64,000 bases of DNA from Hormiphora californensis (lineage: Eukaryota; Animalia; Ctenophora), in assembly GCA_020137815.1 (NCBI GenBank), contig CM035350.1:806001-870000 (forward strand), given 5' to 3'. The translations under genes were made by a program, and so were the position numbers. The notes beneath the pieces were generated by a model. The model saw only the letters and a program-made list of their open reading frames with translations, did no database searches and was not told the origin of the DNA. Each line of letters starts with the position of its first letter. Position 1 is the first letter of the stretch. This document shows, one piece after another, positions 20,901 through 29,900 of this stretch.

Positions 20901-23900
20901 TTCGGTGATATCATAGATAGTGATCATACTCTCTTGAGAGCCCTCATTCGCATTCCATGTTGTTTCCGCTTGCTGAGAGAGATTCACGGGGTTAGAATTA
21001 TGGTTACATACCGTTCAAGAATGGGTTTGTTAGTTGACAACATCTGCTCTCTAATAAGCCTCATAATACCTCATAATACATCTAATAAGGTCTCCAATCA
21101 CTCTTACCTCATAGTACATGGATGTTTTGGTAGGTGTCCAGGTCCATTTGGTGGGTTTAGCAGAGGACCCTCCAACCTTACAGGTCAGTACGGTCTTAGC
21201 ACTGCCCACCTCCACTGCCTGGTCTGTCTGATAGGTGATGAACTGCCACACATTCAATACATTGTTAGTAGTGCTACCACTCATGGTAACCCCACAGGTA
21301 TACTTCTGGTCCTCCTCCTTGTAGTTAGATATCTTTAGAGTGCTGGTGTGTGTTTTACCAGATTCAGTCTTGGTGATGTCAATATCTCCACCCTTGGTGA
21401 CATTTGTACCAGCATTCGACCAGGCAATGGTGAGATCAGCAGACACGTTGTCCACGACACAGCTAACAGTCATCGTGTTACCAGACTTTATACGGGTATT
21501 CTGATTAAATGTTATCTCTAAAAGAGGATAGAGATGGGTTATAGGGTGCGGGAGTGCTGCATTGTTATATGTTATAAATCGTTTTTTAAAAAGAGGGGTA
21601 AGCTAATTGTACATGGGGAATTACACCAATGGTTTAGTTTGATGAATGGTTCACAGTACCTAACGAACATGTAAACTTACGGGAAACTTCAATGGGTACA
21701 GTAGCCTCGCTGGCTGCATAACTATTTGCCATCTCAAACTTGAGATAGTTAGTAGATCCAGCCTTGGCTCCCACCGCATCGACAATGGTTTTCAGTGTCT
21801 TAGTGCTGGGAGTCCATGTGGTGTCCTTGGCTGTGAGTTCAGTACCTCCCAGACTCCACTTGACATTCTTGACGTAGTCAGCACTGTACCCAGTCAGGGT
21901 GACTGTGAACAGGTAGGAGGTGCCCTCTACAATGTTGATGGAACTCGGCTCATACGTAATAGCTGGGGGAGGGGGAAGAGGTTAACAATAGCTGGGGGTG
22001 AAGGTAATCAAATGGGAATATCGATTACTGATAGGTTGTAAGGATTATTCATAGTGACTAGTATCTAGACAGTTGGGTGATCGGATAACTGTTTATTAGC
22101 CTCATGTTTGATATTCAGAGTTTTTGTTATTCTCTCTGTGGCTGGACAAATGAATCAGACGGGTATAATGACGCTACCAGTTTCGAGGATCTACCTCTTC
22201 ATCGGGCTCAAATTAATTTGTTTAAAGTAGTGTTGAAAAGTTTGAAACTAGTATCTAAGACATATAGTTTTAAAAACATCTCCTAACTAACATAAGACTA
22301 TACCAACCTGCAATATCAAGTGTAGATTCCCCTGAGTAGGCTGCGTTATTAAAGAATGTCGCCTTGTAAGTAGATAGAGTCTTGTTAGTCGCCACGCCCT
22401 CTTTAATGACCAGTGTCGCGGTGAGTTCCTTTTTAGCACTGTTGTATTCGACCTTCTTGGTGTAGTCAGCCCCAGTCAGCTGTGTAGCACCCTTGTACCA
22501 GGCTATATTAGATGTTGTAATTGTAGCCTCAATACCAGTCATCACTATAGCAACACTAGAATCAGAGGAGTCGAACCCATAGGAAGCAACGCTCTTTAAC
22601 TGGTAGGCATCTATCTCGACATCCTCGGTATGGGCTTCAAACTCAACCTTTGTCTGACATGCCAGGTCCATATCCTCCTTGACCTCCTTGATAACAATGG
22701 TACTGGTCATCCCCTCACTCTTGTATTCAGTGGATGTGATGGTGTAGTTGCCATCATTTGTAGCTATCTCATCGTCATCTAACTCCCACTTGATGTAACT
22801 GGGTTTAGTCTTACTGCCACTCAGGGTACAGGTGAATGTTCCCGCCTGGCCCTCCAGGATCTGCTTAGTGGGCTGACTGATCACCAGCTTGTACACATCA
22901 ATGGTAGCCTCCGTGTTAATGATATTGTGAGCATACTTGATAGCGCAGGTATAGGTTGTATCAGCTGTGGGGCTATCAATCTTCAGTTCAGATGTCTGGG
23001 CTCCATCTTTAAAGGCACTGTTAGTCACTTTAGACCCGGCCTTGGTAACAGAAGCCTCGTATTTATCACTTCCCTTCATCCAGTAGATATCAGTTGGAGC
23101 AGCCTGGGCATTAGTTAACTTGCAGGTTAGGGTGGCTGCATCCTTCTCCATCACTGTGGTTGATGTCACCTCTACCTCTACAAAGTCCACCTTGACAGCC
23201 TGTGTGTACTCATACCCGTCCACTGTTACCTTACACTCAACCTCATTGTCAACAGTCTGCTTAGTGAGAGTCAGTTGGTTGCCCTGGATGGTATCCTTGT
23301 AGGCAGTGGTTGCCATAACAACCCCAGCAGTGGCATTATCAGCACTATAATCTTTATTATTGTACTTCCACTTCCAGGCAGTGGGCTCCCTGTCAGTTCC
23401 ATCCACCTGACACGACACAATAGCATCCACATCTTTCTTGGTAACGTGACTGAATGTTGTCAGGGTGAACACATCAGATTTCAGTTCCCAGGCCAGCTCG
23501 TTGGTGTCCCACTCGTAGTTACACGTGTATACGGTGTCTGCAGAGGGGGCGGGGATCTCAATCATCTGGTACAGGAACCCATCACTCCTAGCCTGGGTAT
23601 CAACGGTATAGGTGTACCCAGTTACTTTGTCCGTACTGTCCAACTTGCCAGTAAACTTGCTGCTAGTCCACCAGGAGGCCTTGGGAGCTACCTGGGCACC
23701 ATTATACCCACAGGACATGATGGTGTTAGTTCCAGAGAGAGTACTAGTGCTAACCTCCTTCTTCTCAATCACATCAACTGTTACGTCATGATCCCAATCC
23801 CTGTCATTGACCTTGAATGTGGCAGTGTAGGTACTGTCCTTCTGGACCCCATCCACAAACAACATTGAGGTCCGGGATCCAGTAATGGGCTCCCAGGTAG

Positions 23901-26900: not shown

Positions 26901-29900
26901 TACACAACATGGGCTACACAATACACATGGATAAGGGATGTAACTATGCCTTATTTTTACAAATGTGGCTTCAAAACTCACATCTATTTTGGTCTGATCA
27001 GTGAAGGTATTAGCGTACTGGTTCTCCCAGGTATTAGTACCATCACCAAACTTAATGTTTTCAAGGGGGAACAAGTCTGCGGTGTAGTGGTTACTACCCT
27101 TAAAGTCAGTCACCATACATTTCATAGCCAGGGAGTCGTCTCCTAGATCTGTCCAGGACTTGGCGAAGGAAAGCGCTGCAAAGGGGGAGGGAGATTAGAG
27201 AGATGTATAGTTACGAAATGGAATGTCTTTGAATCACTAAATACTGTGCAGTTACGTACAGTTACGTAATTCGAGCAGGGTGCGATATATTACAGTCACT
27301 CTGGGCGTTCCAACTTACACAGCAGTTCAGCCAGATTGTCACTCTTCTCTACGGTGTTGATGGTGCCAAACACAAACTGACACTTGTACGTGGTGTCAGC
27401 TGACAGACTGGATACCGCCTTTTCAGCAGTGGATTGAGTTGTCGTGTGTTTGGTGAAGGATGCTGTGCCAGATGCAGTAGCGTAGGTGTCACTTCCCACT
27501 ACAATATTAACAGCGGTAGGTTGTACCAAACTGTTGGTCATGTCACAGATATAGGTGATAGGGACTACCAACAACCGTTCCTACATTCACATCCACGATT
27601 TCTGGAGGGGGAGAGAGGGATGGTCAAATTGATAAATTTGGTCACCAAATTAAATACCATATTTTACACTACTGAGTATATCCTCTAACTGAGATGTATA
27701 TTTCACTTACGGACGACATCCTACTTGGACAGTGCTATCAACTTGAGACTCAGTTGAAGCCTCATCTGCAGCTCCATCCCATTTAAACCTGCAAGTCACC
27801 ATCATATCCTTGTCAGTACTAGGCGAGGTAAAGGTGAGCACTTTACCGCTCAGTGAGGAGGTGTGGGTTGCACTATTCCACAGCACCGTAGCAGAGGTCG
27901 GGTTGGTATCACTGAGGGGGGGGGGGGATGGTTAAATAGAGGGGAGGGAGGGTTGGTGGTTATTATAGAGAAGGGATGGAGGGTTCAATGAAATAGTGTT
28001 TATTTAGGACTGTAGACGACTCGGAGATTTATTTCAGGAAAGATAATACGGAACGGTTTCGACGTTTAACGTCATCATCAGCTCAAATTAATTTGTTTAA
28101 AGTAGTGTTGAAAAGTTTGAAACTTTTTGGTTAAGAGGAATGAAGAGTTGGTTTCACTGAGTGGGTGAGGGAGGAATGGGAGAGACTGTAGAGAGGAGTG
28201 AGGTTGGAGAGTTGAATTAGCAATTACCTCTTTACATTAGCTACTGTACATGTCATTTGGGTTGTTGCAGATGCCAACACGGGAGTAGTGGATGAGATAA
28301 CCTCTGCAATGGGGGAGGGGTGTTAGTAAAACACACACTGCACTACGACATATTATTTGTTGTCATGTGAGACTGGTAGGGGTGGGGATCACGTACCAAC
28401 AACGTCCAGGGTGTACGCAATACTCTTCTCATCTGTTCCATCACTATTAGAGTCACTAGATACACAACTAAATGTCACGTCTGCGTTTGGTTTTGTCAGT
28501 GTCAGTTTGTCTGTCACACTCTGTCAAGGTTTGTCATGTTTAGTGTCAGTTAAATCTTATAATTTAACACATCTAACCCCCTTCTACTAAACCAGTATAT
28601 ACCAACTCACATGTGTTCCTGCATCCCATGTCCCTGTTTCAATAACATAGTTCTCCCCGAAGGCAGATGACTCGAAGTTATGCTTGGCAGGTTCTTGTAC
28701 GGATATGACCTTGTTGGTGAAGATCACTGTGTCCTGTCCCTTGAGAGCCTTGTTAGTGGTACTGGTCACCACGAACCGGGTATGGAAACACTTCAACTTG
28801 GCAGTCTTTGTGACCGACTGGGTGCCATACTTGACTGTACAGGTAATCGTCTTGGTCTCCTCTTTAGTACAGTAGGTGTTGTCCACAACGAGGGAGGCCT
28901 CGAATATATTGCTGGACCATGTTTTAGATGTTGTGGCTTTGTTAGCAGTGGCGTCCTTGGTCCATGTAGTAGTCCCGTCCGAGAAGGTATAGTCAGTGGG
29001 CTCACTGGCACCGTTCTTAACAGTACACTTGAATGGGTCCCCCTGATATCCAATTAGAACCCACACGTCTTCCACCTCAACAGCTGGGACAAGGTGGCAG
29101 GTAGAGAAAGAGAGAAAGAGAGAAGAGAGAGAGAGAGAGAGAGAGAGAGAGAGAGAGAGAGAGAGAGAGAGAGAGAGAGAGAGAGAGAGAGAGAGAGAGA
29201 GAGAGAGAGAGAGAGAGAGAGAGAGAGACAGAGAGAGAGATAGAAAGATAGTGATATCATTCATTTAACGCATTACTTACAGACAACATCAAGGGTGATG
29301 ACGGATGTAGGAGAGAAACTGGACTGACTTGTGAAGTCGAATTTGCACGTGTACTTCCCATCTCTGTTAGCATGGGTAGGGTTCGCTATACTCAGTACAG
29401 TTTTCTTGGCAGTGGTGGTGATGGAGTAGTCCCCTCCAGCAGTGATGGTACTTGAACCAGTGGTCCAAGTTGCACCGTTCTGGGTTTCTGAACCCTCCAG
29501 TGTACACTCCAGGTCTACCTTGGCATCGTCACCCTCTCGTGCGTAGATGTTATCCTCCGACTGAGCAACTACAAAGAATAAGCACTGTATGTTAGTTGGG
29601 GGGGGGGGGCTACAACATGTAAACAGTACAAAATGTGAAGGCAGTGAACTTCATGAAAATCCCTTCATATCATCGGAGTCTGAAGTAAGATCTCTGCAGT
29701 CACTTACGTCGTGTGTAAAGGGTAATCTCGCTCTTTAGAGTTTTAGAGTTAGGGTAGTTGTAGACACAGGTATATTTCCCAGCATTCCCTACCACGGGGG
29801 AACTAATTGTGATCTTCTGAACCCACTTGATGCCGGCAGTTTTATCGATGGTTTGGGTTCCACCTGAGGGTGCCGTCCAGCTTGCAGATGATGGAGCAGT

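Follow-up and report, generated by a model that had tools for sequence, protein, structure and literature searches.

Intronic spliced leaders joined to hammerhead-like cores in the ctenophore Hormiphora californensis, and their possible origin as reverse-transcribed RNAs

How does an exact copy of a spliced leader come to lie inside an intron, directly against a core resembling that of a self-cleaving RNA? We addressed this question in a 64,000-nt stretch of the Hormiphora californensis genome (GCA_020137815.1, contig CM035350.1, positions 806,001 to 870,000, forward strand; hereafter the window, with coordinates counted from its first letter), where an identical 43-mer occurs on the minus strand at two places, each joined to a hammerhead-like core (copy 1 and copy 2; Table 1). 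A first-pass annotation, made from the letters alone, had reported both fusions as intronic; both were found again, in predicted introns running from GT to AG, and a scan with 12-mer seeds found no third copy of the 43-mer in the window. The published leader of this species is a 44-mer carried by 56% of Iso-Seq reads and present at 718 genomic sites, the origin of which is left unexplained in the accessible part of the genome paper (PMC8527503; here and below, statements from cited papers refer to their accessible parts). Once the first G of the published leader is removed, the two agree at 43 of 43 positions. Judged by this identity, the 43-mer is the ctenophore spliced leader exon, matching the leader on mRNA 5′ ends, as the annotation had proposed.

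Leaders and the adjoining cores

Neither copy of the leader is followed directly by a GT donor (the next bases are CC in copy 1 and CT in copy 2), so neither qualifies as a spliced-leader RNA gene, in which such a donor follows the exon. Scanning the 64 kb for CYGANGA, a stem II and GAAA returned exactly two sites, each of them adjacent to a leader; the core begins 1 nt (copy 1) or 0 nt (copy 2) after the leader end, and the leader is joined at its last base in both. Forty Markov-simulated windows yielded 0.4 sites with a stem of at least 4 bp. The pattern GATGANGN{6,20}CGAAAC matched twice against an expectation of 0.09, with none of 100 shuffles reaching two.

The core CUGANGA...GAAA, with helix II closed by G10.1-C11.1, is exact in copy 2 and carries C in place of U at position 4 (U4C) in copy 1, and one unpaired base (A in copy 1, U in copy 2) stands between positions 9 and 10.1. 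Helix II forms four of four pairs in both copies, one of the four being changed on both sides. This is the compensatory change noted at first reading, but with two rows only it does not amount to statistical covariation, since 260 of 500 shuffles reach the same. Helix III is ACUGGU in copy 1 and ACCGUU in copy 2, each, by eye, one change from the palindrome ACCGGU. The earlier description of minimal type I hammerheads with a palindromic stem III thus stood as far as the Penelope marks are concerned, but had to be revised to a near-palindromic helix III in both copies and a U4C core in copy 1. Three marks are listed for Penelope minimal hammerheads by Cervera and de la Pena (2014, PMC4209133): an additional base separating 9 from 10.1, G10.1-C11.1 and a 15.2-16.2 region that is palindromic. 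Both cores carry the first two, which supports a fit to that type.

Activity of the cores was considered through their predicted folds. In the homologous register, the last leader G is paired in each copy with a C downstream of the cut site; copy 1 additionally has one extra C before the core and one extra G after N17, read by eye as an inserted helix I pair. With the leader attached, contiguous helix I is 2 bp in copy 1 and 1 bp in copy 2 (1-3 over all registers), and copy 1 can lengthen it to 5 pairs if leader bases are included and a bulge is allowed; Penelope minimal hammerheads have a helix I of 4-5 bp, show low activity and need dimers (PMC4209133). Compared with the free minimum, the cleavage-competent monomer fold is less stable by 3.8 kcal/mol for copy 1 and by 8.1-10.6 kcal/mol for copy 2, and the self-duplex energy for a dimer through 15.2-16.2 and loop 3 is -5.2 kcal/mol for copy 1 and only -0.8 kcal/mol for copy 2. 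U4C is a natural hammerhead variant with much lower activity in vitro (PMC3088659). Given 1-2 contiguous helix I pairs, a costly cleavage-competent fold and, in copy 1, U4C, both cores are read as hammerhead-derived motifs, predicted to be weak or off when they are leader-fused monomers. Pairing of the leader 3′ end with the body gave p of about 0.03-0.04 in copy 1 and about 0.7 in copy 2, and downstream pairing that would sequester the core was not significant (0.16-0.82). An off-switch in which the leader 5′ half pairs with the two core strands was rejected, since such pairing does not exceed what shuffled leaders give (a fraction of 0.48 of 500 shuffles in either copy). On the opposite strand, this leader half (GTGTTGA-AAAGTTT-GAAAC; 22230-22249 and 28105-28124, plus strand) loosely resembles a hammerhead core, probably by coincidence.

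A polymorphic insertion and its dispersed family

Copy 1 is a mobile, polymorphic insertion of 184 nt with an 8-11-nt target duplication (TAGATACTAGT) on its flanks. Among positions drawn at random from the window, 1.5% show a comparable repeat of 11 nt and 2.7% one of 8 nt, and read data were therefore needed for the insertion claim. The region was partly covered in 13 of 15 listed runs, and contigs from four of them were aligned to 21900-22450: X1 and X5, samples that share one organism label; X13, from a related other organism; and X15. One X1 contig joins the flanks, skipping 228 nt with 43 letters between, and one X5 contig skips 233 nt with 48 letters between, a net 185 in each. In the relative X13, 277 nt are skipped with 54 letters between, and the contig matches the window again from 22247 upward; the target therefore predates the insertion. 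At 22250-22295 the window departs from the alleles of X1 and X5, whose joints therefore do not place the ends with single-base precision. This intron segment, upstream of copy 1, aligns with the X13 contig and not with the X1 or X5 contigs, a pattern that suggests an old divergent haplotype.

Insertion into a leader gene was considered and rejected, since the empty alleles skip leader and core together and flanks upstream of leaders are unrelated. With retrotransposons of the NeSL/CRE type, which target leader genes, the leader pre-exists at the target with shared leader-gene flanks. Elsewhere in the window, at 60491-60506 (minus strand) and apparently in another intron, a 16-nt exact match (CCAACTGTCTAGATAC, E 0.002) to the copy 1 3′ end plus target start may be a truncated copy or may reflect target preference.

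Summed depth ranged over the body from 7,860 to 28,963 in X1 (64.5 in the flank) and from 31,653 to 116,324 in X5 (251.6 in the flank), more than 100-fold the flank depth in both, although summed contig depth is no copy number. Contigs left the element at 22066 or 22071 into unrelated flanks (agreement 0.47-0.55), at least 11 in X1 (6+5), at least 15 in X5 (9+6) and at least 9 in X13; all such counts concern the best-supported ends, beside which 186 further loose ends exist. The family 3′ end is at 22066, 25 nt past AATAAA, with some pieces stopping at 22071, and no poly(A) run was seen in the consensus flanks of these listed ends. Outside the leader, depth is greatest over 22071-22108, a stretch well covered in X13 too, in which the middle of the body is nearly absent; core and tail are therefore conserved, and the middle is not. 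Ends at 22247-22249, where the leader starts, have unrelated upstream flanks, with counts that span all leader copies.

Position 4 is U in 14% of the depth in X1, 36% in X5 and about 100% in X13 (15, 24 and 21 contigs, respectively). Family variants listed within the motif comprise this return to U, loop 3 (22178) and N17 (22175; A to U); the NUH rule permits U at N17. One X5 record (record 27, 22146-22208), at about single-locus depth, has the hammerhead with the preceding AG and then 80 letters unlike the leader.

A second type of fusion was met among contigs leaving at 22206. In X5 they continue as TGATGATGACGTT.., the start of copy 2 (at least 13 contigs, agreement 0.50), and in X13 as TGATGA-T-GA..TC-GAAA, with the spacing of copy 2 and GAAA at its offset (at least 11 contigs, agreement 0.52); these continuations are mixed consensus strings, reverse-complemented by hand. 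On this sequence evidence, the copy 2 type of leader-core fusion is found again in another sample and in another organism. T-rich sequence follows the leader in further contigs (7, 14, 24), and hammerheads are therefore only one class of leader fusion. In run X15, the RNA status of which is a guess, the leader was covered and the element body was not, which is uninformative on expression because contigs drop small or rare RNAs. Viral contigs gave 0 leader matches. A scan for the leader end plus core gave one metagenome match (L001), which was rejected as an AT-rich, bacterial-looking chance hit, without the 5′ leader and helix II.

Downstream of the core there is no alignment between the bodies of the two copies, their score being matched by 857 of 1000 shuffles; compared whole, with the core included, 23 of 500 shuffles are as good. 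No target duplication of 8 nt or more was found for copy 2, its best repeat being a 7-mer, and no tandem unit was found within 21500-28600, with one core per locus. Of the two ribozyme-bearing families proposed by the first-pass annotation to be re-inserted with their leader, one is mobile and multi-copy and the other has a recurring leader-core type, but trans-splicing in each cycle is something that we only infer.

Both introns belong to the same large gene with immunoglobulin (Ig) and sushi domains, on the same strand as the copies. This very large multi-exon gene (about 11900-34300, minus strand) has numerous Ig domains together with sushi repeats, an ephrin-receptor-like repeat and, probably, a membrane span, and a 14-nt tandem repeat array lies within its region (26774-26935). 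Further along the window are a tandem repeat in which each of the three plus-strand frames stays open over long stretches (44492-45572) and exons with Pfam matches to bMERB (46433-46927, plus strand), strictosidine-synthase-like (53521-54165, minus strand) and, weakly, LMBR1-like families (61082-61636, minus strand).

Table 1. Coordinates of the two leader-core copies, their parts and their surroundings
Feature	Position	Strand	Remarks
Predicted host intron with copy 1	21963..22307	-	sense; GT..AG, reading frame continues
Left target duplication, TAGATACTAGT	22247..22257	-	last 3 nt overlap leader start
Copy 1 spliced leader	22207..22249	-	43 nt, no GT donor after; published leader minus first G
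Copy 1 type I minimal hammerhead	22175..22206	-	motif; variants at position 4, loop 3, N17
Copy 1 C2.1	22206	-	
Copy 1 CCGAUGA	22205-22199	-	U4C
Copy 1 extra A	22198	-	
Copy 1 helix II	22197-22194/22188-22185	-	
Copy 1 GAAA	22184-22181	-	followed by helix III AC-UG-GU
Copy 1 predicted N17	22175	-	putative cleavage register
Copy 1 body and 3′ tail	22066..22174	-	AATAAA 22097-22092; family 3′ end 22066
Right target duplication	22057..22067	-	first 2 nt overlap family 3′ end
Predicted host intron with copy 2	27912..28227	-	sense; GT..AG, reading frame continues
Copy 2 spliced leader	28082..28124	-	identical to copy 1 leader
Copy 2 minimal hammerhead	28051..28081	-	register ambiguous
Copy 2 CUGAUGA	28081-28075	-	then extra U
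Copy 2 helix II	28073-28070/28064-28061	-	
Copy 2 GAAA	28060-28057	-	then ACCGUU-C
Copy 2 body	27960..28050	-	AATAAA at 28033 and 28004; 3′ limit provisional

Origin of the fusions

We consider it moderately probable that the copy 1 family and both copies are reverse-transcribed RNAs of Penelope-type terminal repeats, or of non-coding derivatives of these, onto which trans-splicing would have placed the leader. Such addition probably took place more than once, given that the present-day leader is found unchanged on bodies with no alignment past the core. In the proposed course of events, a transcript would run through a hammerhead-bearing terminal repeat, and the leader would be taken by an AG acceptor located at the helix I 5′ end, with loss of the outer helix I arm. 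The analogy is with Drosophila virilis Penelope, in which helix I is 2 bp with the intron end at its 5′ end and spliced and unspliced ribozymes differ (PMC4209133). The RNA would end, presumably by 3′ processing, about 25 nt after AATAAA, where contigs have their fixed end, and would remain mostly uncut, since contiguous helix I pairing is limited to 1-2 bp and helix III depends on a dimer. Acting in trans, a reverse transcriptase would then prime on a target resembling the RNA end (TGTCTTAG vs TGTCTAG) and copy up to the first leader bases, leaving the 8-11-nt duplication that is seen in the product.

Several observations weigh against this reading. Among the loose ends listed, no leader-less parent with a shared upstream arm was seen, and the X5 contig that leaves the element at 22208 may be either such a leader-less parent or a 5′-truncated copy. 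No reverse-transcriptase family was matched in the 13 long open reading frames (ORFs) scanned out of 34 listed in the window, nor was an element combining reverse transcriptase with GIY-YIG found in them. The tandem arrangement that defines retrozymes is absent at both loci, and a poly(A)-less end with microhomology suits partners of the CR1/L2/RTE type equally. An Rfam cmscan of 20000-30000 gave no hammerhead at E<=10 and four weak unrelated matches, and the segments fold no better than shuffles (z-scores 0.92, 0.48 and -0.35). Most of the X1 and X5 depth carries the activity-lowering C at position 4. In addition, the filled copy 1 allele, which rests on the assembly, was unseen in any run aligned, with depth 0 at 22261-22279 in X1 and X5; contig filters can remove records.

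If the leader was fused only once, in a master copy, to a tail bearing the hammerhead, and now belongs to the element (perhaps as its internal promoter), which is copied as one unit without new trans-splicing, the family would instead be a leader-headed short interspersed nuclear element. The layout of head, body and conserved tail with a fixed 3′ end suits this explanation, as does the absence of leader-less copies among the loose ends listed, and the leader of Ascaris contains internal promoter elements. For dinoflagellates, a promoter role of relict leaders has been proposed (PMC5585692). We nevertheless judge it unlikely, because non-aligning bodies share leaders identical to the present mRNA leader, so that several independent recent fusions at one base would be needed, which is what trans-splicing gives. 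We are more doubtful of a promoter-less retroelement whose RNA would be set by host trans-splicing in each generation: the leader would give the 5′ end and be renewed at its own terminal AG, and in the copy 1 family it would form the 5′ strand of helix I (about 5 proximal plus 10 distal pairs), with trans-splicing gating the ribozyme. Less credible still is a self-renewing cycle in which a promoter-less copy in a sense intron is transcribed as part of the host pre-mRNA, receives a fresh leader at the AG that closes its own, has its 3′ end fixed by AATAAA and, as RNA, undergoes another round of retroposition. Both copies are indeed sense to the host gene, but two sense copies are expected by chance in 1 of 4 cases; the leaders are perfect and no parent was seen among the loose ends listed. 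GAG is a weak splice acceptor. Re-use of the AG inside relict leaders has likewise been proposed for dinoflagellates (PMC5585692).

The remaining explanations do without a trans-spliced element RNA. Leader-capped RNA is abundant (the above 56% of Iso-Seq reads, PMC8527503) and AG could supply microhomology for a reverse transcriptase that jumped from element RNA to leader-bearing RNA. Such template switching, for which U6/L1 chimeras are the model, seems to us very improbable here, as the junction base is the same in both copies and in the at least 13 (X5) and at least 11 (X13) contigs, and no leader-intron or mRNA sequence lies between leader and core. We give the least credence to a source in some small cellular RNA capped by the leader, for instance a box C/D RNA (UGAUGA ... 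CUGA), whose retrocopies would look like hammerheads only incidentally. In each copy CUGA does lie 19-22 nt after GAAA, and for copy 1 a closing stem with the end of the leader is conceivable; however, UGAUGA is broken in copy 1 and in most X1 and X5 family depth, helix II and GAAAC are kept at fixed spacing across families, and neither copy has a relevant Rfam snoRNA match.

Meaning, and comparison with known systems

Under the favoured reading, reverse transcription of trans-spliced repeats, some of the 718 leader copies in the genome would trace concretely to elements of this kind; copies of this sort are a hazard for annotation, where they can pass for first exons shared between genes. Two puzzles of Penelope are touched, namely what role the hammerhead has and for what reason introns are retained in genomic copies. 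As a natural tag, a leader at helix I would indicate that spliced, uncut RNA can be a template, and both questions could be countable in one assembly. If this is true, host trans-splicing is tied to the copying cycle of an element; more speculatively, sense intronic inserts with AG and AATAAA could divert host transcripts.

No paper on leader-hammerhead fusions was found, in a search that left most subscription literature outside. The first-pass annotation had mentioned leader use by cnidarian Penelope-like elements, for which no paper was found either (PMC8557442 has 0 occurrences of 'leader'). Transposable elements (TEs) of Hydra yield RNAs that bear the host leader (about 30% of their Iso-Seq reads, PMC12220107), as is proposed here; that paper has 0 occurrences of 'Penelope', and its accessible part concerns the RNA level only and does not describe re-insertion with the leader, whereas the Hormiphora fusions sit in DNA. 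As in retroposed mRNAs of dinoflagellates (PMC5585692) and leader-fused transposons of Schistosoma mansoni (6 loci, PMC5832876, with 0 mentions of hammerhead), a donor-less genomic leader would mark a reverse-transcribed trans-spliced RNA. Those cases are coding genes and uncharacterised TE loci, unlike the multi-copy 184-nt family with a ribozyme core and an observed empty allele.

Metazoan non-long-terminal-repeat retrozymes are also short, non-coding, hammerhead-bearing, associated with a duplication of more than 4 bp and likely moved by Penelope (PMC7229834; bioRxiv 10.64898/2026.07.22.740005); neither source contains the word 'leader'. Copy 1 has such a duplication (8-11 nt, with empty alleles), and neither locus has tandem hammerheads. 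Whereas retrozymes are tandem with self-cleaved RNA ends and are reported to be depleted from introns in the vertebrates studied (PMC7229834; bioRxiv 10.64898/2026.07.22.740005), the Hormiphora elements are single intronic units running from the leader to a fixed 3′ end.

A close likeness is with hammerheads of Penelope pseudo-long terminal repeats, in the type I core, the extra base between 9 and 10.1, G10.1-C11.1 and mostly dispersed single motifs (PMC4209133). With D. virilis Penelope in particular, the Hormiphora cores share a 2-bp helix III, a 2-nt near-palindromic loop and a presumed splice junction at the helix I 5′ end; they differ in that the junction bears a leader in place of a cis exon, the spliced form sits in DNA and helix II is 4 bp. 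Unlike in Penelope elements, a linked reverse transcriptase-endonuclease ORF was not found for the copies (13 of 34 window ORFs scanned). By this analogy, the Hormiphora elements appear to work like a non-autonomous Penelope derivative, with membership of Penelope as a candidate assignment.

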